Positions 9,190-64,000 of a DNA stretch of 64,000 bases are shown here, piece by piece. Made by a program: the position numbers and the translations under genes. The notes under the pieces were generated by a model, which did not search any database, was not told the DNA's origin, and saw nothing but the letters and a program-made list of their open reading frames with translations. Source of the stretch: an uncultured Gammaproteobacteria bacterium (GTDB lineage: Bacteria > Patescibacteriota > Patescibacteriia > UBA1558 > S5-K13); assembly GCA_964486685.1 (NCBI GenBank), contig CAZAOE010000001.1:12538-76537 (forward strand), given 5' to 3'. The stretch's first letter is position 1; every line of letters begins with the position of its first letter.

Positions 9190-9266
9190 AATGAAAGGAA
9201 ATATTATATTAACCCCCACCATCTCCCCCTTACTAAGGGGGAGGGAGAGGGGGTGAATTTTAAATT
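9190..9266. repeat. 77-bp exact repeat (copy 1), containing a GC-rich palindromic hairpin
   Basis: aatgaaaggaaatattatattaacccccaccatctcccccttactaagggggagggagagggggtgaattttaaatt is identical to 29869-29945; core hairpin CTCCCCCTT act AAGGGGGAG. Confidence 0.7.
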
Positions 9267-9552
9267 AAAAATTGAAATTTGGCATGGATATTTCTCCATT
9301 CTTCATTTTTTCAGCCATTATTTTTTGAATTTTTTTAGTAGCATCATTAAATAATTCCGGAAGTGTATTTTCAATTGTTGAGTTTTCCATATCTTCAGGA
9401 ATTTTTATAGAGAGAACCGTTTGATTGCCATCCATTTTTAAAACAATTCCTTTTTTTTCTACTGCTACATTTTCTTGAGATAAGGCGTTTTGCATGTTTT
9501 TGGCCTGGGTCCTTAAATCTTTAATTTGATTTAGTTTTGAGAACATATTCAT
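9265..9552 (-). CDS. ybaB: Nucleoid-associated protein YbaB/EbfC
   Basis: 95-aa protein, MNMFSKLNQIKDLRTQAKNMQNALSQE..., with YbaB-like composition, located next to recR. Confidence 0.8.
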   Translation of the reverse strand: MNMFSKLNQIKDLRTQAKNMQNALSQENVAVEKKGIVLKMDGNQTVLSIKIPEDMENSTIENTLPELFNDATKKIQKIMAEKMKNGEISMPNFNF

Positions 9553-9811: not shown

Positions 9812-11209
9812 TTATTCTTCGGGTGGTGCAATGTCAGCGTGTTTTTCTAAGCTTTTAAAGCTAACCGTTTCTTCGTCAAAAAATAATTTAATCATGCCCG
9901 TAGGACCATTACGATGTTTGGCTATGTGAATTTCAGCAATGCCCTTTTCTTCTGCGCTTAAATCTTCAAATCTGTAACTTCTATCTGCTGCTTTGCGGTA
10001 AATAAACATAACGACATCTGCGTCTTGTTCTATTGTACCAGATTCTCGTAAATGAGACAGTTTAGGAATAGCGGGTTTGCTCATTTCTACAGCTCGAGAT
10101 AATTGAGATAAAGCAATAATTGGAATATTTAATTCCCGAGCAATATTTTTGAGACCTCTAGTGATTTCAGCTACTTCTTGAACCCGAGATTCTTTATTAC
10201 TATTACTTTCCATTAATTGTAAATAATCAACTATCAATAAAGAAAGGTTATGTTCTAATTTTAAACGGCGGGCCTTGGTTCTAATTTGCATAATATTTAA
10301 ACTGGCTGAGTCATCAATAAATATTTTAGCATCAGCTAAGGTACCCATGGCATTACCAATGCGTGGGAAATCATCATGTTCAGCACTGTCAGAAAGTTTG
10401 CCAGTGCGCATTTTCCATAAAGATACTCCAGCCTCAGAGCAAAGTATTCTATCTACTAATTCTTCTTTGCTCATTTCTAAAGAAAAGAGTCCTACCACTT
10501 CTTTATTTTTAATAGCGGCATGACGGGCTATATCTAAGGCCAAAGTAGTTTTACCTACACTGGGTCGGGAGGCAATAATGATTAAATTAGAATTTTGTAG
10601 GCCAGCTAATTTATTGTCTAAATCTGTATAGCCAGTAGGAATACCTCTTAATTTGCCTTTATTTTTATGAAGTTCGTCAATTCTTTCAAAAGTTTCATTT
10701 AAAATATTGGAAATGGGAATAAAATTTTCTCTGAGGAATTTTTGCGAAATTTGAAAAAGACTTCTTTCAGATTTATCTAAAATATCATCTACGGCCTCTT
10801 TTTCATTATAAGCCATGCCAGTTATTTCGGCAGAGGCCTTGATTAATTTTCTGAGAGTAGATTTTTTTTGTACTATTTCCGCATAATGTTTAACATTGCT
10901 GGCCGTAACTACGGCATTAGTTAAACTGGCTAAATATGATTTTCCACCCACCATTTTTGATTCTTTTCTTTCTTCTAAAAGATTACTAATGGATAAAATA
11001 TCTAAGGGTTCTCTTTTATCATATAAACTTAAACAACATTCAAATATTTTTTGATGGGATTGTTTATAAAAATCCTCAGGATTAATAATATCCGCTATTT
11101 TGTTCATAGCTTCATTGTCAATCAAAATAGAGCCCAAAACATTGGCCTCGGCCTCTAAATTATGAGGGGGTATTTTATCAATAGATTGTGAGTTTTGATT
11201 ATTAACCAT
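9812..11209 (-). CDS. dnaB: Replicative DNA helicase DnaB
   Basis: N-terminal PHNLEAEANVLGSILID, Walker A GKTT, Walker B DYLQLM and the RecA-like fold signature; 465 aa. Confidence 0.95.
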   Translation of the reverse strand: MVNNQNSQSIDKIPPHNLEAEANVLGSILIDNEAMNKIADIINPEDFYKQSHQKIFECCLSLYDKREPLDILSISNLLEERKESKMVGGKSYLASLTNAVVTASNVKHYAEIVQKKSTLRKLIKASAEITGMAYNEKEAVDDILDKSERSLFQISQKFLRENFIPISNILNETFERIDELHKNKGKLRGIPTGYTDLDNKLAGLQNSNLIIIASRPSVGKTTLALDIARHAAIKNKEVVGLFSLEMSKEELVDRILCSEAGVSLWKMRTGKLSDSAEHDDFPRIGNAMGTLADAKIFIDDSASLNIMQIRTKARRLKLEHNLSLLIVDYLQLMESNSNKESRVQEVAEITRGLKNIARELNIPIIALSQLSRAVEMSKPAIPKLSHLRESGTIEQDADVVMFIYRKAADRSYRFEDLSAEEKGIAEIHIAKHRNGPTGMIKLFFDEETVSFKSLEKHADIAPPEE

Positions 11210-11400
11210 AGTATTCCCATTTTAACAGAAAAAATTTATCTTTCAAGTATTTTTATGGACAGTTTATCCACTAAGTATAAACACTTGATTTTTTATAATA
11301 TCTATGTTATATTTTTATGTATAAAAATACAACTATTTGTGTTTTTTTGTTATAATTTAGTAGTCAGCGGTTGGTAGTATTTATGTATTCAAAATGTATT

Positions 11401-11665
11401 AAAAATTAAATATAGTTAATTAAGCGCCGTTAGCTCCCCCCTTCGCCAAAGCTACGGAGGGCAGGCAGTTGGTACCCAACTTCGCTAACAAAGTATATTG
11501 TAATAATTTTATATAGATATTAAAAATTAAATATAGTTAATTAAGCGCCGTTAGCTCCCCCCTTCGCCAAAGCTACGGAGGGCAGGCAGTTGGTACCCAA
11601 CTTCGCTAACAAAGTATATTGTAATAATTTTATATAGATATTAAAAATTAAATATAGTTAATTAA
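11401..11665 (+). repeat. Tandem array of 121-bp units (2.2 copies), each carrying the tRNA-Lys promoter and first 13 nt of the tRNA
   Basis: Units start at 11401, 11522 and 11643. Each has aaaaattaaatatagttaattaaGCGCCGTTAGCTC followed by a 53-nt GC-rich insert (ccccccttcgccaaagctacggagggcaggcagttggtacccaacttcgctaac). The third unit continues into the intact tRNA. Confidence 0.8.
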
Positions 11666-11741
11666 GCGCCGTTAGCTCAGTTGGTAGAGCAGCAGCCTTT
11701 TAAGCTGATGGTCGCAGGTTCGAATCCTGCACGGCGTACCA
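11666..11741 (+). tRNA. tRNA-Lys (anticodon UUU), with encoded CCA
   Basis: GCGCCGT-TA-GCTC-AGTTGGT-AGAGC-A-GCAGC-CTTTTAA-GCTGA-TGGTC-GCAGG-TTCGAAT-CCTGC-ACGGCGT-A-CCA. Cloverleaf with perfect D and T stems; 7-nt anticodon loop C-U-UUU-A-A. Confidence 0.9.
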
Positions 11742-29839: not shown

Positions 29840-29868
29840 GAAATAATTTTGAATTACGAATGAAAGGA

Positions 29869-29945
29869 AATATTATATTAACCCCCACCATCTCCCCCTT
29901 ACTAAGGGGGAGGGAGAGGGGGTGAATTTTAAATTTAAAATTAAT
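29869..29945. repeat. 77-bp exact repeat (copy 2) with GC-rich hairpin
   Basis: Identical to 9190-9266; lies 30 nt after rpsU. Confidence 0.7.
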
Positions 29946-29956
29946 AATTCAAAGAA

Positions 29957-30502: not shown

Positions 30503-32188
30503 ATGTTATTAAAAGCAAAAATAAAAAATAGTTTTAACTTTTCTAAAATAACTGTTGTCAGTTTAGTTTTAATGTCAGCGGTTATTTTTTTATTACCCAG
30601 CATTTCTCAAGCCCAAATTTTAGTTCCCCAAGTAGATAATTTAAGTACGGGCAGTATTGAAGAGATAGCTGGGACTGTTATTCAATTGGTTTTGGGCTTA
30701 TTGGGCTTAATTGCTTTAGTTATTGTTTTATATGCCGGTTTTATGTGGATGACTTCTGGAGGAAATGAAGAAAAAATATCTAAGGCCAAAAAAATCTTAA
30801 GTGCTGGAGTAATTGGACTTTTAATTATTTTGGCCTCTTATGCTATCACCAGCTTTATTTTACAAGTAGCTCAAGGAGGAGGTGGCGGTGGTGGTGGACA
30901 CGGAGATTATACGGAAGGATTGGGTGGATTTGGCGGAGGAGCATTAGGCGGAGGGGTAATTGAATATCATTATCCGGCTCGAGATGCTACTAATATTCCG
31001 CGTAATACTTTAATTATGATTAGTTTTAAAGTTAGGGTTGCTACTAGTAGTGTAATAGCAGAATCTTTTACTGATAATCCGGGGCTTGGGCTTTGTAATA
31101 ATTATACAGAAAACAACACTAATGGTAATGAATGTGGAATTTTAAGTAGCGATATAGAGATAATTGATTATGGTTCTGAAAATATTCCCTTGGATCCAGA
31201 AGATGTAGTTGCTGTTTTAACTGCAGATGGAAAAAATATTTTACTTAGGCCCATAGAGTATTTAGGAAACGGAGAAAATTCTACTGATACAATTGTGTAT
31301 TTGGGAGCAGGAATGGTAACTGCTGATGGTAAGGACTTATTTGGCGGTTTAGAAAATGGATATGCTTGGCAATTTGAAGTCAGTACTTTTTTAGATCTTA
31401 CGCCTCCAACTGTTAGTTTTGTCTGGCCAGGGCAAGACCAGATAGTGGCACGTAATGCTATTATTCAAGTTAATTTTTCGGAACCCATAAATATTTTAAG
31501 CGTAGATGGAAATATTATTGTTACAAATTTACCAGATGAAATTTTAGCAGGAGAATTAAAAATTAGTAATCAGTATAAAACAATAGAATTTTTAGCTGCT
31601 GGAGACTGCGGAGGAGCAAGGGTTAATTCCTGCGGTGAAGAAATATTTTGTTTACCAGCTTTGGCAAATATTGAAACTTTAGTTGAAGCCGGAGAAGCCG
31701 ACGATCCTTTAAGTGGAATTAGTGATGCGGCTGGTAATTTATTGGCAGAAGATTATATTTGGGATTTTAATACTACTAATAATGTTTATACTATTTCTCC
31801 AATAATAGAATCTACTGGTCCAGTTAATAATGAAGAAAATGTTCAGCTGAATCCAAATATTTGGGCTTTATTTGATTTAACAGATGTCAATATTTCGCCT
31901 AGTTCTTTAAATACAGATAGTTTTTATATTTATGATGCTGATAGTTGTGTTGATTTAGGTCAAGACGATCCAGATTTAGAAGCTGGGCACAAAGAAAATA
32001 TTGCTGGAGATAATTGTTTCCCAGCTTATTCCGTTTACATGAGCGATGACAATAAGAAGTGTAATATTCAAATATATAATGCCTTAGAAAATAATATTCT
32101 TTATTATCCGCGAATTACTTCTGAAATTAAGGATTCTTATGGAAATTGTTTTAATCCAGCTGAGGGTCCAGGCGGGAGCGAGCGGTAA
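30503..32188 (+). CDS. Surface protein with VirB2/TrbC-like pilin-type N-terminal anchor domain, poly-Gly linker and Ig-like (Big) extracellular domains
   Basis: Signal peptide, then two hydrophobic helices separated by a short charged loop (VIQLVLGLLGLIALVIVLYAGFMWM - TSGGNEEKISKAKKIL - SAGVIGLLIILASYAITSFIL), which is VirB2/TrbC topology. GGGGGGGG linker follows. TPPTVSFVWPGQDQIV...VNFSEPIN is an SbsA/Big_5-like Ig domain. Confidence 0.55.
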   Translation: MLLKAKIKNSFNFSKITVVSLVLMSAVIFLLPSISQAQILVPQVDNLSTGSIEEIAGTVIQLVLGLLGLIALVIVLYAGFMWMTSGGNEEKISKAKKILSAGVIGLLIILASYAITSFILQVAQGGGGGGGGHGDYTEGLGGFGGGALGGGVIEYHYPARDATNIPRNTLIMISFKVRVATSSVIAESFTDNPGLGLCNNYTENNTNGNECGILSSDIEIIDYGSENIPLDPEDVVAVLTADGKNILLRPIEYLGNGENSTDTIVYLGAGMVTADGKDLFGGLENGYAWQFEVSTFLDLTPPTVSFVWPGQDQIVARNAIIQVNFSEPINILSVDGNIIVTNLPDEILAGELKISNQYKTIEFLAAGDCGGARVNSCGEEIFCLPALANIETLVEAGEADDPLSGISDAAGNLLAEDYIWDFNTTNNVYTISPIIESTGPVNNEENVQLNPNIWALFDLTDVNISPSSLNTDSFYIYDADSCVDLGQDDPDLEAGHKENIAGDNCFPAYSVYMSDDNKKCNIQIYNALENNILYYPRITSEIKDSYGNCFNPAEGPGGSER

Positions 32189-32340: not shown

Positions 32341-35300
32341 ATGCTTAAGAAAAGAAAAAATTTATTTTTAATCTTTATACTATTTATAGTAATAGGTTTT
32401 GTATTACCAAATATTTCATCTGCTCAAATTTTAGTTCCACAAGTAGATAATCTTAGTACAGGTAGCATTGAAGAGATAGCTGGGACTGTTATTCAATTGG
32501 TTTTGGGCTTATTGGGCTTAATTGCTTTAGTTATTGTTTTATATGCCGGTTTTATGTGGATGACTTCTGGAGGAAATGAAGAAAAAATATCTAAGGCCAA
32601 AAAAATCTTAAGTGCCGGAGTAATTGGTCTGATTATTATTTTGGCCTCTTATGCTATAACCAGCTTTATTTTACAAGCAGCCCAAGGAGGAGGTGGCGGT
32701 GGAGGCGGTGGAGGTCAAGGATGTACTCCTAATGAATGTACGGGTTGTTATCGGTGTGATCTTGATGGTAATTCTCATTATGACGAGACTTGTCCTACCT
32801 GTGGTTCTGGTGGGGAAACATATAATTTTAGTGTAATTACTAATAGTCCTCAAGGAGAAAATATTTCTTTGTGCAGTTTAATTCAAGTTAAATTTAATAA
32901 TATTGTTGATGAAACTACAGTTAATTCTCAAAATTTTGGTTTATATGACTGTGGAGCCAATTCTTGTGCTGGCAATTTAATCAACAATTTAACGCCAGAT
33001 GGACAGTTTATAATAGAAGAAGATATAATTCAGTTTATTTTAGGAGAGGATTATGAGCAGAAGCATTATTATGCAGTTAATATCATACATGATGGGATTG
33101 CAGATGAAGACGGAGAGGCCTTGTTAGTAGATTATTATTGGGAGTTTAAAACTGGGAATGAAACAGATACAGAGCCACCTACTGTTATTTCAGTATTTCC
33201 TAAAGATGATCAAGAAGATGTTTGTTTAACTTCATATATTACCGCCGAATTTTCAGAAGATATGGATATGCTTTCTTTAAGAAATGCCTCGTCCTTTTAT
33301 TTATATGAAGACATTGACACTCTATCAGATATAGATTTTTTTCATCAGGTTTATAATGACTCCTTAATTTTATATCCTAACTCTAACTATGAAGCAGTTG
33401 AAGATTACTTCCCTTTATTAAATGGCAGTATTATTAAAGATACTTGTGGTAATTATTTAGATGGTGATGGTGATGGCACTCATCAAGATTCAGATATTGA
33501 TAATTATCCTTCAGAAGGTCCTAGTGAAGAATGGAATTTTATTACCGGAGATAATTTATATTGTACGCCAGAAATTACTGGAGTTGAAAATAATCAAACC
33601 TATTATGACGCCACAGAGAATTTAATTATTTCTGGTCATTATTTAGGGAATAATCCAGTTTTAATTTTTGATAATTCCATAGTCGTAAACCAAACAAGTA
33701 ATTTATGTATGGGAAATGAATATTGGTATGATGGCGCTTGTGTTATTTGGGCCTGGACAGAAGAAGAAATAAAAGTAGCTATACCAGTGACTGGGGGCGA
33801 TAATAACGGAGTTAGGGCCGGAGAAAATTTAGTGGAAGTGCAAACTGATGAAGGCAATGTTAGCGCTAATTTTGATTTATTAAGTCCGCGTATTAATGCT
33901 TTATATCCAGACCAAGGTGGAGTTGGACAATTTATCAGTATTTGGGGAATAAATTTTAAAGAAGATGAAAACATTAATTTAAGTGCTTCCGAGGTTTATT
34001 TTCGTTTTAATCAAGATGAATACATAGAAGCAGATTTACCTTGTGGCCAAGATGCCTGGGAAGATGAACAAATTATTATTTCTGCTCCTAATAATTTGAA
34101 TATAAATAATGTTTATGCTGTGCAAATTAAAAAAGTTTATGATGACGGTACAGAGCGCTGGAGTAATTTAGCGGATTTTTATTTTAATGATGAAGAAGCT
34201 GGACCAGGTCTATGCTCTATTGATAAGGATGAGCTTTTTTTTGAAGACGAATTTAATTTAAATGGAATTAAATTAGGGGACGATATCTTTTATAATAGAG
34301 AAGTAATTTTAGGCGATGATTATAGTTCCATACAAGCTGATGTCTTAGAGTGGACCGGAAACGATGGTGATGGACACAATACAGATGTTGAGGCCATAAC
34401 TCCCTTAATGGGTTCGGCTACAGGAGTAGGCGTTAGAGTAATGGTAGAGGAAACAGCAGGTGAACAAAGATTTAGTAATTATTTAAATGTAGAGATATTG
34501 GCAGATGAATCAACAAATTTTTATATAAATTATACTTCTCCAACCTCAACTCCAATAGGGGGCTATGTGACGATTTATGGTTCTGGGTTTGGAAATAGCC
34601 AAGATGATAAGATGGTTAAGTTTAATATAGGCGGAGATGATTGGACAGATGGAGATTTTGATTTTCCAGATGAATGTTCTACGGCTTTTTGGAGTGATGA
34701 ACAAGTAATTGTTAAAGTACCGGAAACATTTAATGGTTTTGGGTTTCCATTTTCTTCAAAAATAAAAATTATAGATTCAGCTAATTATTTAGAAACTAAT
34801 GCAGTAAATTTTGAAGTTAATAATGAAGGACTTGCTCCTTGTATTTGTAGTGTAAACCCTGAATTTGGAACAAAAGAAAATGAAATTGAAATTGCTGGTG
34901 AGTATTTTGAAGATCCCGATGATGTAGATAACTTTTACTTTAACACAATTTTTGATAACAGCGGAAATTTTATATCTGGAGATTATGCGGATTTTATTAT
35001 AGATTCAGATGAGTTAATGTTTGTAACAGTAACATCAACGCAAACTGGTTTAATTTCAGCTCGCAATATTAATGGCTATGGCAATACTTGGAATTTTGAA
35101 TATATTGAAGCAGGAGCAGACATAACAGGTGTTTGGGATTTTTATGGCTGGAATTTTACTACTTGTGCAGATTGTGAAAATCCAAGAGTGAGTAGAAAAA
35201 TATGTAATTCTAATAACGGTATATCTTTTCCTTCGCCAGAACCAGGAAGTACAGATGTACCACAAGACACTAAACAGGTTTATGCGGCTTTTGAATATCC

Positions 35301-55630: not shown

Positions 55631-55640
55631 TATAAAAAAT

Positions 55641-55676
55641 AAAACTAAGTTTCTAGTACTAGAAACTTAGTTTTTT
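55641..55676. terminator. Bidirectional terminator: 34-nt perfect palindrome centred on GTAC, flanked by an A-run and a T-run
   Basis: aaaactaagtttctagtactagaaacttagttttTT sits between the convergent glyS and 55692-56033. Confidence 0.6.
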
Positions 55677-55691
55677 GGTATAAAAATTTAA

Positions 55692-56033
55692 TTATTCTTC
55701 GTACATTAATTCGTTATTTTTCCAAATTTGACAAAGATAAATATCTTCAATATCTTCTTCGCCAGTATAATCATTTGGAATTTGAACAGTTACTTCTACT
55801 TTATCCTCTCCCTCTAAAAATATAAAATATTGATTGTCTTTATCTTTAGTCACACGATTAAATTCAAAGTTTTCGTAATTAGGTAATTTGTGGTAGTCGG
55901 GATCGTCTTTTAAAGCATCCCAGTCAGGTATTTCATCAAGAGAATCCCATACATGTTCTAATAATCCTTTATATTTTTGATTAGTTTCCTTCCTTTCGGT
56001 ATTATTGTTTAGATCTCCCAATTTTTCTTTCAT
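55692..56033 (-). CDS. Hypothetical acidic protein
   Basis: 113-aa ORF with no recognisable motif. Confidence 0.4.
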   Translation of the reverse strand: MKEKLGDLNNNTERKETNQKYKGLLEHVWDSLDEIPDWDALKDDPDYHKLPNYENFEFNRVTKDKDNQYFIFLEGEDKVEVTVQIPNDYTGEEDIEDIYLCQIWKNNELMYEE

Positions 56034-56166
56034 AATTTTTAAATTAATTGTTTAACTCCTTCTTAATTTAAGATTAGCAAAATCTAAAAAAAAAAACAAG
56101 TTTAAAGGGGGTGTTTTAAAAAGATATTATTTGATATACTGAGAATAGTTAAATTAATTGAGTATC

Positions 56167-56202
56167 CAAAGCTTAGCTTCGGGTACCCGAAGCTAAGCTT
56201 TG
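56167..56202. promoter_or_regulatory. Perfect 36-nt palindrome centred on GGGTACCC in the divergent promoter region, 14 nt upstream of the radA ATG
   Basis: caaagcttagcttcgggtacccgaagctaagctttg equals its own reverse complement; no SD before radA. Confidence 0.4.
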
Positions 56203-56215
56203 TTTTATAAATATC

Positions 56216-57559
56216 ATGTCTAAGATAAAAACAATTTATGCTTGTTCTAAATGTGGTGCTCAGACCGCAAAATGGGAAGGGCGTTGTCCAGAATGTGGAG
56301 CTTGGGGTAGTTTAGAAAAAGAAAGCATTGCAGATTCAGACAAAAAAGACAAAGAAAGTCAACTTAAAGATTTAAAAGTTGATTTTATTGATTTAGATAA
56401 GCTTAAGAAAACCGATACCCAAAGATTAAAAACTGGCTTTGATTCTTTTAATGTTGCGATTAATGGTGGAATTGTCCGGGCTTCTTTAGTTTTAATTGGT
56501 GGTAATCCCGGAATTGGTAAATCAACTTTAATTTCACAAATAGTTTCTAATAATTTTAAAACTTTATATGTTTCTGGAGAAGAAACTGCTTCTTCAGTTA
56601 AATCTCGAATAGATAGATTAGGAGCTAAGGTTGGAGATTTAAAGTTTTTAGCAGAAAATAATTTAGAGAAAATATTAGCCGGAGCCATGAAAGCTAAACC
56701 TGATTTATTAATTATTGATTCTATTCAAACCATGTATACTTCCGAAATTGATTCAGATCCCGGAGGTGTTTCTCAAGTGCGGGCTTGTACAGTGAAATTA
56801 ATGGAGATTGCTCGGAAATTAGACATGGCAGTTTTAATAGCCAGTCACGTTAATAAAGCTGGAGATTTAGCTGGCCCAAAGGCCTTAGAGCATTTAGTTG
56901 ATTGTGTTATTTCTCTAGAGGGCGATAGGCTCAATAGATATAGAATGTTAAGGGTTATTAAAAATCGTTATGGAGCAACAGATAATTCCGAGGTTTTGGA
57001 AATGACCAGCAAGGGTTTTAAAAAAGTTTTAAATCCATCGAACATTTATCTTTCTAATACTAGTGTGGATAAAGGAACCGTTATTACTTCAATTGTTGAT
57101 GGAAATCAAGTTTTAATGTTAGAATTACAGGCCTTGGTTAATAAAACAAATTTTGGTTATCCAAAAAGAACTACTTCTGGTTTTGACCAAAAGCGCTTAG
57201 AATTATTATTAGCGGTTTTATCTAAACAAGCCAGTTTAAAATTAGGAGCTTATGATGTGTATATTAATTTAACTGGTGGTTTTAAAGTCAAAGACCGTTC
57301 TTTAGATTTAGCAGTTTGTTTAGCGATTATGTCGGCTTATCATGATAAAGTAGTTAAGGAGAGTACTATTGCTTTTGGAGAGGTTGGTTTAAGTGGCGAG
57401 GTTCGTTCTATACCAAAAACCAAAGAAAGAATTAAAGAAGCAATTGCCTTAGGATTTAAAAATATTATTATTCCTAAATTCGACAAGAAGGTTGATATTA
57501 AAGGAGTTAATTTAATTGAAGTTGAAAAAATTAAGGATTTGGAAAAATATTTGGGATAG
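56216..57559 (+). CDS. radA: DNA repair protein RadA/Sms
   Basis: C4 zinc finger CSKCGAQTAKWEGRCPECGAWGS, RecA-like Walker A GGNPGIGKSTL, KNRYG motif and a Lon-protease-like C-terminal domain. Confidence 0.9.
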   Translation: MSKIKTIYACSKCGAQTAKWEGRCPECGAWGSLEKESIADSDKKDKESQLKDLKVDFIDLDKLKKTDTQRLKTGFDSFNVAINGGIVRASLVLIGGNPGIGKSTLISQIVSNNFKTLYVSGEETASSVKSRIDRLGAKVGDLKFLAENNLEKILAGAMKAKPDLLIIDSIQTMYTSEIDSDPGGVSQVRACTVKLMEIARKLDMAVLIASHVNKAGDLAGPKALEHLVDCVISLEGDRLNRYRMLRVIKNRYGATDNSEVLEMTSKGFKKVLNPSNIYLSNTSVDKGTVITSIVDGNQVLMLELQALVNKTNFGYPKRTTSGFDQKRLELLLAVLSKQASLKLGAYDVYINLTGGFKVKDRSLDLAVCLAIMSAYHDKVVKESTIAFGEVGLSGEVRSIPKTKERIKEAIALGFKNIIIPKFDKKVDIKGVNLIEVEKIKDLEKYLG

Positions 57560-57624
57560 GAATAACGAATTAAGAATTAAGAACTAAGAATTAAAAATTA
57601 AGGATAAAATTAAAATTACTAAAA

Positions 57625-59157
57625 ATGAGAAAACAATTTAACATAGTCCAAATCGTTTCAGAATTTTATCCATTTACAAAAACTGGTGGATTAGCTGATG
57701 TTGTAAAATCATTGTCTGAGGCACAAAAAAGACTTGGATATAATGTTTGCATATTCACTCCATTTTATGAAAAAGTAATTGACCAAAAAAAATACAAATT
57801 CGAGAAAATAATATCAAATTTTAAAATAGATACTTATAAGGGAAAATTAGTAAGAATTAATGTTTTAAAAAATTATTTAATTCCTAATTTGCCAGTTTAT
57901 TTTATTCAAAATACAGAATTTTTTTCTAGAAATAAAAATTTGTACGGCTCTAGTTATGAAAATACAAAATTTTATTTTTTTAATACTGCTTGTATAAAAA
58001 TTATAAAAAAATTAAATATTGAGCCAGATATTATACATTGTCATGATTGGCATCCTGGACTAATTCCTTACTTATTAAAAACTAAATATAAAAAAAGTGA
58101 ATTAAATAAAAAAAGTTCAATTGTATTTACAATACATAATCTTATATTTCAGATGGGGCGTAATTGGTGGAAGATAAGTTTAAAGAAAAGAGATTTTGGA
58201 AAAACCTCACTTCCAAAGCTTGATGATTCGAAAATAGAAAATATAAATTTTACAAAAAGAGCCATACTAAACGCTGATGTAATTAATACTGTTTCAGAGT
58301 CTTATGCTCAAGAAATTATGACTAAAGAGCATGGACAGAATTTAAATAGGATATTATTCAATAGGAGAGAAAGAGTATTTGGAATAGTAAATGGTATTGA
58401 TTATGATGCTTATAATCCGTTAACAGATCCGGGCTTGTATAAAAATTTTAGTTATAAAGAAATATTTTTTAAAAAAAATAACAAATCATATCTCCAAAAA
58501 AAACTTAAATTCAAATTAAGTGAGACAATTCCAGTTATAAGCATGACTTCTAGAATTACTGAACAAAAAGGATTTGAACTTGTTATGGAAAAAATTAATC
58601 ACCTGTTAAAACTTAATCTTCAATTTATAATTATGGGTGACGGTGATAAGAAATATATAAATGAATTTAAAAAATTAAACAAGAAGTACCCAAAAAAATT
58701 TAAATATTTACCTTTTGATAATAATTTTGAAACTTCAATCTATGCTGGTAGCGATCTAATTTTACTGCCATCTCGTTATGAACCATGCGGTATAAATATA
58801 TTAATTGCAATGAGATACGGTTGTATACCCATTGTTTATCCAATAGGCGGTTTAGCTGATATAGTAACTAATTATAGCCCAATAAAAAATATAGGTACTG
58901 GATTCACACTAAAAGATTATTCTGGTAGAGAGCTTTATATTACTGTAGTTAAGGCATTAGAGCATTTTAAGCATAAAAAAGATTGGGAAATTTTTGTAAA
59001 AAAAGTAATGCAAATCTCTACTTCCTGGAAAATACCGGCTAAAAAATATATTAAGCTTTATAGAAAGGCAATAAAATTTCATAAAGCCTCATTGAACAAT
59101 AAAACATTCAATCAGGGTAAAAATAATAATCACTTTAAAAATGGGAAATTGGATTAA
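57625..59157 (+). CDS. Glycogen/starch synthase-like glycosyltransferase (GT5)
   Basis: N-terminal KTGGLADV (K-x-GGL) motif and the GT-B fold C-terminal half. Confidence 0.7.
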   Translation: MRKQFNIVQIVSEFYPFTKTGGLADVVKSLSEAQKRLGYNVCIFTPFYEKVIDQKKYKFEKIISNFKIDTYKGKLVRINVLKNYLIPNLPVYFIQNTEFFSRNKNLYGSSYENTKFYFFNTACIKIIKKLNIEPDIIHCHDWHPGLIPYLLKTKYKKSELNKKSSIVFTIHNLIFQMGRNWWKISLKKRDFGKTSLPKLDDSKIENINFTKRAILNADVINTVSESYAQEIMTKEHGQNLNRILFNRRERVFGIVNGIDYDAYNPLTDPGLYKNFSYKEIFFKKNNKSYLQKKLKFKLSETIPVISMTSRITEQKGFELVMEKINHLLKLNLQFIIMGDGDKKYINEFKKLNKKYPKKFKYLPFDNNFETSIYAGSDLILLPSRYEPCGINILIAMRYGCIPIVYPIGGLADIVTNYSPIKNIGTGFTLKDYSGRELYITVVKALEHFKHKKDWEIFVKKVMQISTSWKIPAKKYIKLYRKAIKFHKASLNNKTFNQGKNNNHFKNGKLD

Positions 59158-60280
59158 TATTCTGCATTTTTATCAACCATTTTGGCAGGATAAAAATACT
59201 TTAGATAAAGTAATAAGAGAAAGCTATTCCTTTCTTTTAAATTTATTAGAAGAATTTCCAACATTTAAAATTACAATAAATTTTTCTGGATCTCTTTTAG
59301 AATTATTAAATGATAGAAAATATTGTAATATTATCAAAAAATTTAATCATTTTGTAAAAAATGGACAAGTAGAGCTAATGGGTAGTGCTATGTATCATCC
59401 CATATTAGCAAAACTTCCAGAAGATGAAATTATTAGACAAATAAAATTGAATGAAAAGATTATAAATAAATATTTTGGTAAAAATAATAAAATTAATGGA
59501 TTTTTTATCCCGGAACTCGCTTATCATCCCAAAGTGGGTAAAATTATAAAAAACCTTGGTTATAAATGGGTAATTCTTGATAGTATATGCGCTAAAGAAA
59601 GAATTTCATATAATACTAAATATATTGATAAAAATTCTAAACTTGATATTATTTTTAGGAATAGAATAATCTCTAAAACTTTTGCTCCAGAATTTTTTTC
59701 TTCTCAAGTGAAATTAAATAAAATCTATATAACTGCAAGTGATGCTGAATTATACGGTCATTGGCATCATGATTGGCAGCAACATTCTCGAAAAGTATTA
59801 AATAATAATTTAATAAAAACAATACATGCTAGTGAATGGCTTGAGATTATAAAAAAGAGTAAACAGATAATTTTAAGGTCGGGCAATTGGGAATCAACAT
59901 TAAAACAAATAAAAAATAAAAATTATTATTTTGTCTGGGATAATTCTGAAAATAAAATTCAAAAAAATTTATGGATTCTATGTAATTTAGCATATAAATC
60001 ATTAAAACAAAATAAAAAAGATTCTAACTTTGATTGGTGTAGAAAGTCAATGGATAAAGCATGGTCAAGCTGTTTTTGGTGGTGGGCTAGTGGGGAAAAA
60101 TTAAGCACTTTTTCTCCTATAGCCTGGCATCCGGATGTTATTATTAGAGGATTAGACATAATGATAAATGTTGTCAGATCTCTTCAGAAGCTAGATAAGA
60201 ACACAAGATTAAAAGCAGAAAGAATTTATGCTAATACCGTTTATTTAATTTGGAAAAAACATTGGACTCAATATCAATAG
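59141..60280 (+). CDS. Glycoside hydrolase family 57-like protein
   Basis: N-terminal ILHFYQPFWQ (GH57 region 1, HxHQP-like) and SDAELYGHWHHDW (GH57 region 4). Confidence 0.6.
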   Translation: MGNWINILHFYQPFWQDKNTLDKVIRESYSFLLNLLEEFPTFKITINFSGSLLELLNDRKYCNIIKKFNHFVKNGQVELMGSAMYHPILAKLPEDEIIRQIKLNEKIINKYFGKNNKINGFFIPELAYHPKVGKIIKNLGYKWVILDSICAKERISYNTKYIDKNSKLDIIFRNRIISKTFAPEFFSSQVKLNKIYITASDAELYGHWHHDWQQHSRKVLNNNLIKTIHASEWLEIIKKSKQIILRSGNWESTLKQIKNKNYYFVWDNSENKIQKNLWILCNLAYKSLKQNKKDSNFDWCRKSMDKAWSSCFWWWASGEKLSTFSPIAWHPDVIIRGLDIMINVVRSLQKLDKNTRLKAERIYANTVYLIWKKHWTQYQ

Positions 60281-60321
60281 AACACAAGAAGATAAAAACA
60301 CTCAAACATTAAAGCAATAAA

Positions 60322-60419
60322 CCCCTCACCTTTTTAAAATAAATTATGCTATGAATTATTATTCTTACTTAATATATTTAAAAATGAAACATTTTATTCT
60401 TAATCAAAAGGTGATGGGG
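60322..60419. mobile_element. MITE-like element (98 bp), inverse-orientation copy of 32205-32301
   Basis: TIRs cccctcacctttt ... aaaaggtgatgggg. The interior is ~70% identical to the reverse complement of the other copy. Flanked by aaagcaa direct repeats and by longer ~35-bp direct repeats (60282-60320 / 60437-60470). Confidence 0.55.
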
Positions 60420-60541
60420 TAAAGCAAGAAATCAATAAAACACAAGAATATTAAAACATTAAAGCATAAAAACAATATAACAATTTACCCCATCAACCCA
60501 GCTTAGCTGGGTGAGGGATTTAATAATTAAACAATTATCCA

Positions 60542-61105
60542 ATGTCTATTCATCTAATTTTCGAAGGAGCAGAATTAACTGGCAAAAGTTTTATAATGAG
60601 TCAGGTTTATGATTTTATTGAAAAAAAGTATAATACAAACAAAAATATTTTAGACGGTTGTTATTGGTTTAATTTAGATATCGGAGTTTTTGGAGGGAAA
60701 TATGCTAATCAATATATAAAACAATATCTACCAATTCTATCTTCACTCAGAGAAAAGAATTTGATTTTAGAAAAATTTTATATAACAGATCAGGTTTATC
60801 AAAAATTTTATAATAATAAAAATGTAAAATATACCACCATTGAACAAAAATTAAAAAGATTAAATTTTAGAATTATATTATGTACTATTGAAAAAAATGA
60901 GGACTTGATTAAGCAAAGGCTAAAAGATAGAATTAATTTATATCCTCATTACAGAAGAATTGCTACAAAACCGAAGGACTACATAAGACAGCAAGAGTTA
61001 TATGTGGAATTCACAAAAAAAAGTAAATTACCTTATTTGGAAGTTAATTTAACAAAATTACCAAACAAAAAAGTAGTAGATAAAATATTAAAGTATGTGC
61101 TGTGA
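60542..61105 (+). CDS. P-loop nucleoside/nucleotide kinase (dTMP kinase/deoxynucleoside kinase-like)
   Basis: LIFEGAELTGKS Walker A in the dTMP-kinase-like context. Confidence 0.45.
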   Translation: MSIHLIFEGAELTGKSFIMSQVYDFIEKKYNTNKNILDGCYWFNLDIGVFGGKYANQYIKQYLPILSSLREKNLILEKFYITDQVYQKFYNNKNVKYTTIEQKLKRLNFRIILCTIEKNEDLIKQRLKDRINLYPHYRRIATKPKDYIRQQELYVEFTKKSKLPYLEVNLTKLPNKKVVDKILKYVL

Positions 61106-61311
61106 AAATGTACTGTATATATTTCAATAAAGTAATAAAACCCGTTAGATAGATATGTTTTGATTGTTCAGGCGGGTTAATGAATTGGATTGCTAATAAA
61201 TAAATCTCCACACTTAATTTAAAAAGTTATATTGATGGGAATAAAATATATGGAAAATAAAAAAGATCTATTTAGGGGGTTGAATCCCGTAAGATACTTA
61301 ATATCAACGGA

Positions 61312-62775
61312 ATGAATAAAATTAGAGTATTAATGACAGCATCTGAATGTTATCCTATCGCTAAGGCTGGCGGTTTAGGTGATGTTTTGAATTCTTTGCC
61401 AAAGGGTTTAATAAAACAAGGAGTAGAAATTAAAATAGCTATACCAAAATATAAATTCATAGACAAAAAATATTCAGGAAAGCTGTTTATGAAAAATATC
61501 AAAACAACTATTGAAAATAAAACAATTTATTTTAATGTCTATAAAACAAAATTGTGTAGAACAGATATTGAGGTATTACTTATAGATAATAAATTACTCA
61601 AAACAAATAAAATATATGTTGGTGTAAGAAAATATATGAAAGGTAAATATTCCAGAGCAGCAAAAGACATTGAAAGATTTACTTTGTTCTCAAAATTAAT
61701 AATGGACTTTTTAATAAAATCAAAATGGCAGCCAGATATTATACATTGTCATGACTGGCATACAGCTTTATTACCTAATTTAATAGATGAATATTATCTT
61801 AAAAATAAAACAGATAAGTATTATAAAACATTATTAACAATACACAACCTAGCGTCTCAAGGAATAGCTAATTTGAATATTTTAGAATATGCTGAGTTGG
61901 AAAATAGTAATTTGCCTGCAATTCTCGAAGATAAATTGGATGATAATCAGATTAATATGCTAAAACTTGGGATATTGTCCGCTGATTTAATCAATACAGT
62001 AAGTCCAACATATTCAAAAGAAATTTTAACCAAAGAATATGGTGCTGGACTTGAAAATTATTTAAAACGCAGAAAAAATGATTTATTTGGAATATTAAAC
62101 GGAATTGATGAAAATTTATTTAATCCAAACCAAGATAATGCATTGAAACAAAAATACAATGCCAAAAATATTATTTCAGGTAAAAAAATTAATAAAAAAT
62201 ATTTACAAAAAAAATTAAATTTAAAACAAGATAAAAATATACCATTATTTGGACTAGTATCAAGATTAGTGCAACAAAAAGGTATTGATGTATTAGTAAA
62301 AGCAATTGAAAAAATAAGAAACAAAAAAGATTTTCAAATTGTAGTATTGGGTTCAGGACAGAAAAAAATAGAAAATGAGCTGGTTAATTTAGCAAAAAAA
62401 TATCCCGACAGAATTTCTGTAAATATAAAATATGATGCAAAACTTGCACAGCAAATATATGCTGGATGTGATTTTTTTCTGATGCCATCAAATTTTGAGC
62501 CCTGTGGATTGGGACAAATGATTGCTTTAAAATACGGAACACTCCCGATTGTAAGATTAACAGGCGGATTAAAAGACACAATTTTAAATTTAAAAAACGG
62601 TTTTACATATAAAAACCAAAAGCCAGAAAATTTAGCAGAAGCAATACAAACCGCAATAAGCACTTTTAAGAATAAGAAAAAAATGCAAAATATGATAAAA
62701 TATGGGATGAAACAGGATTTTTCATGGAACCAAAGCGCGAAAAAATACATAAAACTTTATAAAAAGTTAATATAA
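61312..62775 (+). CDS. glgA: Glycogen synthase (GT5)
   Basis: KAGGLGDV motif and a glycogen synthase-like C-terminus (EPCGLGQMIALKYGTLPIV). Confidence 0.8.
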   Translation: MNKIRVLMTASECYPIAKAGGLGDVLNSLPKGLIKQGVEIKIAIPKYKFIDKKYSGKLFMKNIKTTIENKTIYFNVYKTKLCRTDIEVLLIDNKLLKTNKIYVGVRKYMKGKYSRAAKDIERFTLFSKLIMDFLIKSKWQPDIIHCHDWHTALLPNLIDEYYLKNKTDKYYKTLLTIHNLASQGIANLNILEYAELENSNLPAILEDKLDDNQINMLKLGILSADLINTVSPTYSKEILTKEYGAGLENYLKRRKNDLFGILNGIDENLFNPNQDNALKQKYNAKNIISGKKINKKYLQKKLNLKQDKNIPLFGLVSRLVQQKGIDVLVKAIEKIRNKKDFQIVVLGSGQKKIENELVNLAKKYPDRISVNIKYDAKLAQQIYAGCDFFLMPSNFEPCGLGQMIALKYGTLPIVRLTGGLKDTILNLKNGFTYKNQKPENLAEAIQTAISTFKNKKKMQNMIKYGMKQDFSWNQSAKKYIKLYKKLI

Positions 62776-62804
62776 AATTTACCTTATCGACCCAGCTTAG
62801 CTGG

Positions 62805-63779
62805 GTGAGGGGTTTAATAACACTTAATATCAAATATAATAAAATTATGCTACAAAAATCAGAACTTAGAAAAGATTATATTCAAAACAAATATGTTATT
62901 ATCGCTCCCAAAAGGTCTCAACGTCCTAATATTCATAAAATTAAAAAATTAGGAACAAGAAAAAATAAAGAAGACCAAAAATGTCCCTTTTGTCCTATAA
63001 ATGTTAATAAAGTAAAAGATTTGTTTACAATTGGTTCTAAAAACGATTGGCAGGTTAAAGTAATAAAAAATATATTTCCAGCAGTAAGTTTGGATAATGA
63101 CAAGGCCTACGGACAACAAGAAATAATTATTGACACTCCAGATCATTCATTAGAAATTGAAAATTTACCTATTAAGCAGATTGTAAAAATTTTTGATGCC
63201 TATTCTGAGAGAACAAGAATTATTAGTAAAAATAAAAAAATCAGCTACATTATAATATTTAAAAACAATGGCGGAATAGCCGGGGCTTCTTTAGAACACT
63301 CTCATTCTCAAATTTTTGCAACAAACTTTATCCCCCCGCACTTAGCTGATAAATCACAAAAACAGCAAGAGTATAAATTAAAATATGGAACCTGTATTTA
63401 TTGTGACGTTATTAAGAAAGAATCAAATGGGCCAAGAAAAATATACCAAGATAAAAATATTATTGCATTTTGCCCATATGCTTCTATGTATAATTATGAG
63501 GCCTGGATTATTCCAAAAAGACACTTAGACAACATTACATTATTAAATAAACCCGAAAAAGAATCTTTTGCAAAGGCATTAAAATTAATTTTATCAAAAA
63601 TAAATTTACTAAATTTACCATATAATTTCTATTTTCATCAGGTAATACACGATGAAGACCAACATCTATATATGAAAATAGTTCCTAGAGGAAGCGTATG
63701 GGCTGGATTGGAAGTAGGTTCAGGTGTTGTTATTAACCCAATAGACCCTGATCAGGCTGCTAAATTTTATAGGTCATAA
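62805..63779 (+). CDS. GalT-like HIT-superfamily nucleotidyltransferase (galactose-1-P uridylyltransferase / ADP-glucose phosphorylase family)
   Basis: CPFCP zinc site and H-S-H-S-Q active-site motif (LEHSHSQIFA); 324 aa. Confidence 0.65.
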   Translation: MRGLITLNIKYNKIMLQKSELRKDYIQNKYVIIAPKRSQRPNIHKIKKLGTRKNKEDQKCPFCPINVNKVKDLFTIGSKNDWQVKVIKNIFPAVSLDNDKAYGQQEIIIDTPDHSLEIENLPIKQIVKIFDAYSERTRIISKNKKISYIIIFKNNGGIAGASLEHSHSQIFATNFIPPHLADKSQKQQEYKLKYGTCIYCDVIKKESNGPRKIYQDKNIIAFCPYASMYNYEAWIIPKRHLDNITLLNKPEKESFAKALKLILSKINLLNLPYNFYFHQVIHDEDQHLYMKIVPRGSVWAGLEVGSGVVINPIDPDQAAKFYRS

Positions 63780-63785
63780 AAATGA

Positions 63786-63947
63786 AGAGACGAAGCAGTA
63801 GCTCTAGGTTTTAAAAATATTATCATTCCTAAGTTTGATTTACCCCCACAACTTAGAGGTAAGTGTGGGGGTAAAAAAGTAAATGTTAAAGGAGTTAATT
63901 TAATTGAAGTGGAGAAGATTAAGGATTTGAAGAAATATTTGGGGTAA
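63786..63947 (+). pseudogene. Duplicated 3'-terminal fragment of radA (53 codons), carrying an in-frame 36-nt palindromic insertion
   Basis: Translates RDEAVALGFKNIIIPKFD-LPPQLRGKCGGK-KVNVKGVNLIEVEKIKDLKKYLG*, against the radA C-terminus AIALGFKNIIIPKFDKKVDIKGVNLIEVEKIKDLEKYLG*. It is preceded directly by an in-frame TGA. The insert ttacccccacaacttagaggtaagtgtgggggtaaa (63840-63875) is a hairpin. Confidence 0.6.
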
Positions 63948-64000
63948 GTATTAAGTATTATGTATTAAGAACGTAAAGTAGCAAAGCTACTAACGTTCTT

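Follow-up and report, generated by a model that had tools for sequence, protein, structure and literature searches.

The 3′ end of radA occurs twice, on either side of a block of glycogen-metabolism genes, in a 64,000-nt stretch of DNA (hereafter the window; GCA_964486685.1, contig CAZAOE010000001.1, positions 12,538–76,537, forward strand). The source is recorded as an uncultured Gammaproteobacteria bacterium and is placed by GTDB in Patescibacteriota; Patescibacteriia; UBA1558; S5-K13. The radA gene (56216..57559; positions are those of the window, and features lie on the plus strand unless otherwise stated) is intact and functional-looking. It codes for 447 aa with Pfam zinc ribbon, KaiC/AAA_25 ATPase, and ChlI/Lon_C domains, and its homologs in sister lineages are 85–89% identical. 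About the last 45 codons of this working gene, together with 25 nt past its TAG stop, form copy 1 of a direct repeat (57423..57584). Copy 2 (63778..63972) is a displaced and untranslated radA 3′ end, here called the orphan, which is in frame and likewise has 25 nt of similarity after its stop. The 6.2-kb block between the copies (the island) contains genes for two GT5 glycogen synthases, a GH57-family enzyme, a 187-aa protein, and a GalT-like enzyme. We read the source contig for flanking genes to 10 kb beyond the block each way, and related loci or lineages compared with the window are labeled with L numbers (e.g., L086 and L161).

The radA repeat and the block that it brackets

The recurrence of the radA end downstream of the GalT-like gene had been noticed in an earlier, sequence-only reading of the window, and it was recovered both by blastn of the window against itself (E = 4e-18) and by tblastn of the last 60 RadA residues against the second copy (71% aa identity, E = 3e-17). 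The repeat is ~160 nt long, with ungapped blocks that are 82% (57485–57584 and 63873–63972) and 77% (57423–57483 and 63778–63838) identical. Its first copy had been read as starting at 57441; the codon-exact start is 57440, and the similarity also runs ~25 nt beyond both stop codons, to 57584 and 63972. The longest identical block between the copies is ~25 nt (TTAAAGGAGTTAATTTAATTGAAGT) and lies in a conserved coding stretch, where identity is expected anyway.

In-frame translation of the second copy gives RDEAVALGFKNIIIPKFD-LPPQLRGKCGG-KKVNVKGVNLIEVEKIKDLKKYLG*, in which LPPQLRGKCGG is the inserted part. This part corresponds to a GC-rich palindrome at 63839..63875 with a 12-bp perfect stem (−23.4 kcal/mol, z = −4.5). 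An in-frame palindromic insertion had been described here before as 36 nt long; the net insertion is 33 nt, or 11 codons (63840–63872). The earlier observation that the copy is in frame, conserved, and preceded by a TGA agrees with the translation: upstream of the orphan lie the TAA stop of the GalT-like gene (63777–63779), AAA, and TGA (63783–63785). The orphan ends at a TAA (63945–63947), lacks a start codon, has in-frame TAA and TGA upstream, and is absent from every open reading frame (ORF) list. It shares the reading frame of the GalT-like gene, with TAA AAA TGA alone between them (63777–63795), which is probably a matter of chance (1 in 3).

The sequence after the stop codons of both copies (57560–57624 and 63948–63972) contains imperfect heptamers (GAATTAA, GTATTAA, GTATTAT). 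In two species they are shared by the orphan copy and the working one (L093:4608–4650 and 10990–11035), and the number of units varies by lineage. A dif/Xer-type site at the repeat was considered by eye only and rejected, as the GTATTAA-like heptamers are direct and do not form inverted arms. A hairpin (63967..64000; fold z = −3.0) lies 3′ of the orphan, and two tandem terminator-like sites follow just beyond the window edge (window-equivalent ~64014–64096; L001 11168–11188 and 11229–11250). The terminator scan found no such site between radA and the first synthase gene. The next ORF starts ~210 nt after the end of the orphan at 63947.

The structure is not an artefact of assembly. Because the data are metagenomic, a chimera of two co-occurring strains has to be considered; however, eight aligned contigs of the window lineage from three sources (JGI, ENA, and Logan; several samples) are identical at 99.99–100% over this region, and independent assemblies of a related lineage (L093 and L164) agree exactly in their truncated orphan. 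In addition, identical stretches between the repeat copies are 25 nt at most, too short to mislead assemblies (some contigs are named k141), and the probability of a chimera is therefore negligible. The island is present in all 21 contigs that code for an identical RadA, no island-less variant being found in this population, and the orphan tail and its hairpin show no polymorphism among contigs of the same species, all of which are identical.

The first gene of the island codes for glycogen synthase 1 (GS1; 57625..59157), a GT5 enzyme of the GlgA type (PF08323, E = 6e-62; TIGR02095, 460 bits), and starts 65 nt after the radA stop. It is followed by the gene of a 379-aa GH57-family enzyme (59141..60280; PF03065, E = 8e-29) with a weak match to branching enzymes. 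Glycogen synthase 2 (GS2; 61312..62775) is again of the GT5, GlgA type (PF08323, E = 9e-64; TIGR02095, 526 bits). The last gene codes for a GalT-like nucleotidyltransferase of the HIT superfamily (PF01087; TIGR00209 above cut-off), 310 aa long as called on public contigs (62847..63779), for which an alternative upstream start (GTG at 62805) is possible; it ends 6 nt before the spare tail. These family matches bear out the enzymes named in the sequence-only reading. The best solved structure for the GalT-like protein is 1z84 (E = 6e-46), deposited as a galactose-1-phosphate uridylyltransferase-like protein, against 1e-20 for Escherichia coli GalT. We take 1z84 to be Arabidopsis At5g18200, reported as an ADP-glucose phosphorylase, in agreement with the earlier guess for this gene.

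The 187-aa protein (k187; 60542..61105) is a conserved member of the cluster, present also in clusters of other Patescibacteria. It had been called a P-loop kinase, a name that goes too far: the protein has a Walker-A-like motif and no match in Pfam, NCBIfam, PHROGs, or PDB, and its single-sequence structure prediction (predicted local distance difference test score 34) was unusable. Between the GH57 gene and k187 lies a scar region (60273..60477; fold −24.3 kcal/mol, z = −3.4), in which 47-nt direct repeats (60273–60319 and 60431–60477, 83% identical) surround a 106-nt element (60320–60425) with terminal inverted repeats (AACCCCTCACCTTTT...AAAAGGTGATGGGGT). This element is absent from L093 and occupies the position of an APH-family gene in L161, a relative whose cluster is linked to ruvC. 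The 47-nt repeats take in the final 8 nt of GH57 coding sequence and 39 nt downstream, a miniature layout of a gene end duplicated around an insert. A GC-rich hairpin (60484..60522) precedes k187 and has a second copy at 62778–62816; the two belong to a 63-nt repeat (87% identical) and fold with z = −4.2 and −2.6.

Composition gives a weak sign at most: GC content is 26.2% in the island vs. 29.8% in the rest of the window (P = 0.013), and GC content at third codon positions (GC3) is 0.185 vs. 0.207, which is not significant. The undifferentiated GC3 fits an origin inside the clade, and a foreign origin by composition was not upheld, GC being slightly lower and GC3 no different.

No integrase, transposase, excisionase, phage, or conjugation gene was found in the block or in the 10 kb that flank it on each side by Pfam, NCBIfam, and PHROGs scans, including the contig downstream of 64000, in which the sequence-only reading had suggested looking for an integrase. 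This search combined precomputed Pfam matches over ±10 kb with Pfam, NCBIfam, and PHROGs scans of unassigned ORFs and of the genes that occupy the corresponding site in relatives, and no recombinase was found among the occupants in six related lineages either. Scans of the extended locus for tRNA genes and Rfam families gave no relevant match; thus, it is not an integration site of the tRNA or tmRNA type. A degenerate radA-tail pattern had no match in 2.9 million viral contigs. Terminal inverted repeats were not found at the block ends, the small palindromic elements being inside the block and not at its bounds, and the gaps at its two ends, of 65 and 6 nt, are too small to have housed a recombination module since lost. 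A transposon or miniature inverted-repeat transposable element with target-site duplication was therefore rejected, given that the repeat is ~160 nt long and allelic, unlike the 2–14 bp duplication, identical at first, that such an insertion makes, and that no inverted repeats lie at the block ends.

The radA–recG slot and the usual site of the operon

Beyond the orphan, the source contig continues with the hairpin, the two terminator-like sites, a 227-aa ORF of unassigned function, recG on the minus strand, and genes for rubrerythrin, desulfoferrodoxin, Fpg, and a prepilin peptidase; upstream of radA lie ftsA, ftsZ, nrdR, clpB, and glyS. Among the sister lineages, radA and recG converge on a slot of varying content. 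The two genes face each other ~100 nt apart with nothing between them in L158 (RadA 66% identical), enclose one 156-aa gene in L088 (78%) and two small ORFs in L087 (88%), and are separated by a GH130 phosphorylase and a 733-aa glycosyltransferase in L086 (89%). None of these four loci has a second radA tail, and the block is absent from all of them, which answers the comparison with related genomes that the sequence-only reading had proposed. From a slot that is empty in L158 and holds other genes in L086, L087, and L088, with no second tail, it follows that radA–recG is the ancestral adjacency and that, compared with these relatives, the 6.2-kb block has been inserted. A second tail detectable at the protein level was confined to the window lineage among 87 radA loci, the 86 others being without it. 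No second tail occurred in 80 diverse radA loci from a genome-contig RadA search, whose identity (≤47%) makes them unusable for synteny.

Past the orphan, the content of the slot changes repeatedly. This part holds the 227-aa ORF in the window, two small ORFs in L093, three in L164 (the same lineage as L093, judging by the identical orphan), a 234-aa ORF in L165, and two large genes in L163. By eye only, the small ORFs of L093 (L093:11250–11960) resemble a HicB/HicA-type toxin–antitoxin pair. Independent assemblies of L159 and L160 stop ~90 nt past the radA stop, and these contig ends may reflect strain-level variation of the slot.

The distribution of the operon was surveyed by a metagenome scan with the GalT-like protein, with the loci mapped using the window proteins, and by protein search plus context look-ups for close relatives. 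A cluster of the order GS1–GH57–(APH)–k187–GS2–GalT was found in many Patescibacteria contigs at 45–69% identity, and the same gene order held across metagenome loci at 45–92% aa identity. Of 36 assessable loci, 29 have ruvC, preceded by yebC, as the gene directly upstream of the cluster or of a lone GalT-like gene, and 3 have radA there. GS1 comes first in 16 of the ruvC loci and the GalT-like gene stands alone in the other 13. The yebC–ruvC–GalT-like arrangement in these 13 loci without glycogen synthases (e.g., L107, L123, L127, L136–L141, L146, and L148) seems to be a deeply conserved synteny.

The GalT-like gene closest to that of the window is in L161 (92% aa identity; other cluster proteins 79–87%), where the order is YebC–RuvC–GS1–GH57–APH–k187–GS2–GalT, then a terminator, and a radA tail is absent. 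In the window, L093, and L163, RadA is upstream of the operon in place of RuvC. The operon lies 3′ of radA in the window lineage, L093/L164, L163, and probably L165–L168, and in no other lineage, and the APH gene is missing from all radA-linked operons. Bracketing direct repeats were not found around the cluster in 14 other long loci; therefore, it is not generally repeat-flanked. A candidate remnant of the ruvC 3′ end 5′ of GS1 (local alignment P ~ 0.03) was rejected, as it falls in low-complexity sequence and is absent in L093 and L163. Taken together, gene order shows the 6.2-kb block to be an operon of the clade itself, normally located after yebC–ruvC, which was relocated to the radA–recG slot in a small sub-clade with loss of APH. 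As such, the island is neither foreign cargo nor a new biochemical system.

The island and its flanks differ in age between sister species. Between the window and L093, the proportion of synonymous differences (pS) is 0.48–0.50 in the flanking GlyRS, RadA, and RecG genes, with 0.47–0.51 differences at 4-fold sites; in the island genes, pS is 0.26–0.49 (≤0.40 in four of five) and the 4-fold differences are 0.19–0.29. The island genes are thus about twice as similar between these species as the flanking genes. They are also a mosaic: part of GS2 is 95% identical at the nucleotide level to the ruvC-linked L161, vs. 89–90% to L093, and the synthases of L163 (pS 0.66–0.70) are far more diverged than its GH57, k187, and GalT-like genes. 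Between the window and L093, the working tails of radA (pS 0.70) are not recently shared, placing the left boundary of the exchanged segment near the radA stop. These values show that the operon has been exchanged among sister lineages more recently than the flanks diverged. Recombination hotspots are regions between core genes in which flanking homology drives the replacement of variable gene sets. Like such a hotspot, the radA–recG slot holds different genes in each sister lineage and the island coalesces later than the flanks; unlike here, plain double-crossover replacement leaves no duplicated gene end.

Divergence of the two tails and origin of the arrangement

The orphan is not confined to the window in all its parts. 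The junction after the GalT-like stop (TCATAAAAAT) is common to the window, L093/L164, and L165. In L093/L164 and L165, ~100 nt of the orphan are deleted, and the last ~10 codons and the post-stop sequence are kept; the L165 remnant carries a different GC-rich hairpin. In L163, the operon is followed after 13 nt by two unrelated genes and then by recG, with no orphan. It follows that the junction, being shared, arose once and that the full-length orphan is older, and truncation in L093/L164 and L165 together with absence from L163 indicates that the orphan is dispensable. The sequence-only reading had named, as speaking against an inserted element, a relative with the glycogen genes next to radA but no duplicated tail, and a tail copy that belongs to a longer gene past the window edge. 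L163 is such a relative. The tail copy, in contrast, does not belong to a longer gene: it ends at 63947, some 210 nt before the next ORF.

Comparison of the working tail with the orphan by the Nei–Gojobori method (39 codons, hairpin removed) gave 16 synonymous (Sd) and 4 nonsynonymous (Nd) differences, with pS = 0.69 and a proportion of nonsynonymous differences (pN) of 0.043; a comparison of this kind had been suggested before, and the result has the same synonymous-rich pattern as orthologous tails of different species. In the ten remaining codons of the L093 orphan, five differences from L093's own tail are synonymous and none is nonsynonymous. The window orphan is 83% identical to the tail of its own genome and 85–86% identical to the tails of L093 and L086. 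Nucleotide identity to relatives does not tell which of the two tails is native, all values lying at 82–86% over 117 nt. We also simulated neutral decay: with half of the 20 differences taken as neutral changes in the orphan, the probability of four or fewer amino acid changes is ~0.01, and it is smaller with more. The two tails are thus two distinct alleles that look functional, at least one position holding an allele that evolved as the working radA end in another lineage. Both copies in the window end in Gly, which is otherwise seen only in the L165 orphan (K, N, S, or F in other lineages), and this suggests a short conversion patch.

These results bear directly on duplication in place, by a long target-site duplication or a local tandem duplication, with later decay of the unused copy. 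Direct repeats do flank the insert, and a 47-nt duplication flanks another insert in the island. However, a ratio of 16 synonymous to 4 nonsynonymous differences without a stop or frameshift, for which the simulation leaves a probability of ~0.01 or smaller, and an orphan at 83% identity to its own tail and 85–86% to those of other species, that is, as far from the one as from the others, speak against this origin. Thus, in-place duplication followed by drift was rejected as a candidate, and we regard it as very improbable.

The explanation that we consider best, with a confidence only somewhat above even, is displacement of the gene's 3′ end by recombination between related lineages. Donor DNA comprising the 3′ part of radA and the operon, in an L163-type arrangement without an orphan, would have entered from a related lineage into a genome whose radA 3′ flank was unoccupied. 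On the left side, homologous recombination would have taken place within radA; on the right side, the incoming DNA would have been joined, just past the GalT-like stop, to the recipient radA at about codon 405. This join may have been made by homology-facilitated illegitimate recombination (HFIR) or, with the same outcome, by a Campbell-type single crossover of a circular fragment. RadA would then read into the supplied tail, and the other tail and the terminators would have been moved 6.3 kb downstream. In this scheme, radA and the operon would now probably be one transcription unit that ends after the orphan, and no dedicated recombinase would be required. The orphan would have no coding role and would be eroding in the different lineages by deletion and insertion of GC-rich palindromes. 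The displaced tail has no start codon, and it alone is followed by terminator-like sites, as expected if it retains the downstream flank of the gene. The earlier reading had proposed integration into a gene's 3′ end with a replacement tail. Its geometry is supported, with the insertion between radA and recG, two alleles, and terminators after the orphan; its mobile element with metabolic cargo is not supported, in view of the lack of a recombinase within ±10 kb, the end gaps of 65 and 6 nt, the native operon, and the unchanged GC3.

Several points weigh against displacement as described. The orphan opens with ~20 nt that are A-rich and only weakly radA-like, with no clear microhomology, and at this right junction an illegitimate join is indistinguishable from old, decayed homology. 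Recombination of the RecA type would have a very low efficiency over 160 nt that are 83% identical, which favors a long anchor in the body of radA or a site-specific enzyme. Among host functions for DNA uptake and recombination, radA and recG were the sole genes seen. A tail phylogeny on 117 nt yields no resolution of donor and recipient lineages, and the scheme does not account for how the operon first came from ruvC to radA. Above all, the orphan looks too well preserved: it has 4 nonsynonymous changes against ~9–15 expected if neutral (P ~ 0.003–0.07, a rough Poisson estimate that was not computed), the junction is common to lineages whose island genes differ at 19–29% of 4-fold sites, and the island intergenic regions can no longer be aligned between the window lineage and those sharing the junction. 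A preserved orphan needs an extra step, possibly renewal through subsequent crossover with a working allele of a relative that lacks the island, alternation with the working tail by excision and re-insertion, or some other constraint.

The main competitor to 3′-end displacement, which we think rather unlikely, is a degenerate or trans-mobilized site-specific island of the e14/icd or cis-mobilizable element (CIME) type, in which an integrase element targeting the radA end captured the operon and either lost its module or uses an integrase elsewhere. The block is bracketed by direct repeats including the radA 3′ end, as attL and attR would bracket it, at 77–82% identity. The geometry equals that of e14 in icd/icdC with tails mostly synonymous apart, the repeat of ~160–185 nt with its post-stop sequence and 25-nt identical block offers a possible core, and presence or absence differs among sister lineages. 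Moreover, a functional-looking orphan is expected if excision periodically re-joins the gene. On the other hand, the lack of any integrase, excisionase, transposase, phage, or conjugation gene extends from the block and its ±10 kb to the slot occupants of six lineages, and the 65- and 6-nt gaps hold no module remnant. The content is the clade's ruvC-site operon with undistinct GC3, a second tail detectable at the protein level is known from the window lineage alone among the 87 radA loci, and the tail pattern is unmatched in the viral contigs. An element with a cognate integrase at the same att site was likewise not found at the 87 radA loci, in the slots of relatives, or in viral contigs, a search that did not cover whole genomes of the clade. 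It is also possible, though quite unlikely, that the orphan is kept for a function, either as a 3′ untranslated region and terminator platform of the operon or as a spare radA end, taken into use when recombination between the repeats removes the operon, in a reversible, integrase-free cassette. Such a role would fit an orphan that is far better preserved than the intergenic DNA of the island and that has terminator-like sites directly after it; orphan remnants are 84–86% identical between the window and L093 over 57 nt vs. 68% at radA third codon positions. It fits poorly with the deletion of ~100 nt in L093/L164 and L165, with the absence from L163, with hairpins inserted at differing points, and with the 21 contigs of the window population, none of which is island-less; besides, 25 identical nt at most are a poor substrate for homologous pop-out. 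There is a slim chance that the operon is a recombinase-free cassette that moves in and out via the radA-tail repeats by host homologous recombination during DNA uptake and in this way passes from one Patescibacteria species to another, the orphan alternating as the working radA end. If true, this would account for the functional-looking orphan, the junction shared by diverged lineages, and the recent coalescence of the island.

Known systems resemble the locus to different degrees. Orphaned 3′ regions produced by HFIR-type displacement have been proposed for rhs loci and type VI secretion system (T6SS) effector–immunity arrays in Vibrio cholerae (PMC5361080). As in the window, homology lies in the gene body, a new 3′ end arrives with downstream genes, the resident 3′ end is left without a start, the alleles differ, and no recombinase is involved; the mechanism is deduced in both cases. 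The rhs/T6SS loci carry differing toxin tips with immunity genes and build arrays, whereas here the radA tails are equivalent, the added genes are a metabolic operon, and there is one orphan. In E. coli, icd continues into the prophage e14, at whose far end stands icdC, a C-terminal pseudogene, the tails being mostly synonymous apart (PMC13626634). The working gene likewise runs into a supplied 3′ end in both cases and the tails differ mainly synonymously; however, e14 has its own integrase and excises, and the radA block is a native operon with no recombinase or mobile-element gene. Phage 21 in icd is similar to e14. CIMEs have att sites and lack integration and conjugation genes, as at the 3′ end of fda in Streptococcus thermophilus. 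They are similar to the island in being recombinase-free cargo blocks bracketed by direct repeats at the 3′ end of a housekeeping gene. Unlike it, they adjoin or derive from integrative and conjugative elements, from which the integrase comes. A partner of this kind was not found for the radA block, whose repeats, instead of being short and identical, are long and diverged.

Other insertions near radA and significance of the locus

Small palindromes recur at the radA end outside the island as well. In L087 (L087:1535–1600), a GC-rich hairpin of ~32 nt lies in the last codons of the working radA, with GATTTA duplicated on both sides; the protein ends in KDLSTHLF*, and the old ending, DLEKYLK*, follows the new stop. 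The hairpin in the L165 orphan is a different one at nearly the same spot as the L087 insertion. It seems that the radA 3′ end is repeatedly targeted by small palindromic insertions. Within the window, GC-rich palindromes of one family are found at 9190–9279, 29859–29949, 60484–60522, 62778–62816, and 63839–63875 in a genome of 28% GC; two of them form a pair of 91 nt with 97% identity. Copies of the motif ACCCCNWCA were seen 7 times vs. 1.7 expected, 4 of the 7 in the island region.

Upstream of radA, the stretch 55631–56215 between glyS and radA contains a minus-strand ORF of 113 aa with no family match and perfect palindromes at 55641–55674 and 56167–56202. This ORF is missing from both L086 and L093; glyS and radA overlap in the former and are ~65 nt apart in the latter. 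It is another lineage-specific insertion beside radA. In the more distant L088 (L088:1296–9992), L158, L159, and L160 (RadA 66–78%), a conserved type IV secretion-like cluster lies directly 5′ of radA (PrgI, TraC-like, VirB4/TraG-type ATPase, type IV secretion system pilin with amidase, and thioredoxin-like proteins), where the window has glyS. Two further repeats lie farther from radA: a 121-nt tandem unit in an intergenic region (11397–11678), whose copies are 100% identical, and a 307-nt repeat (30586–30891 and 32397–32702, 93% identical) at the 5′ ends of adjacent genes for proteins of 561 and 2938 aa, which have paralogous N-termini.

In summary, we consider the radA locus to be a recombination scar of the 3′-end displacement type, that is, an example of a known sort and no new mobile element. 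It bears on how gene order changes in Patescibacteria (the candidate phyla radiation), whose genomes are tiny, whose members are mostly uncultured, and in which gene flow is poorly known. The locus offers a clean and datable case, in which a conserved operon has left its position after yebC–ruvC, kept in much of the Patescibacteria loci sampled, has entered a variable slot between two DNA-repair genes, and is being exchanged among sister species. It thereby provides direct evidence at the sequence level of recombination between species of Patescibacteria, and the orphan tail may serve as a marker by which such recombination can be traced.

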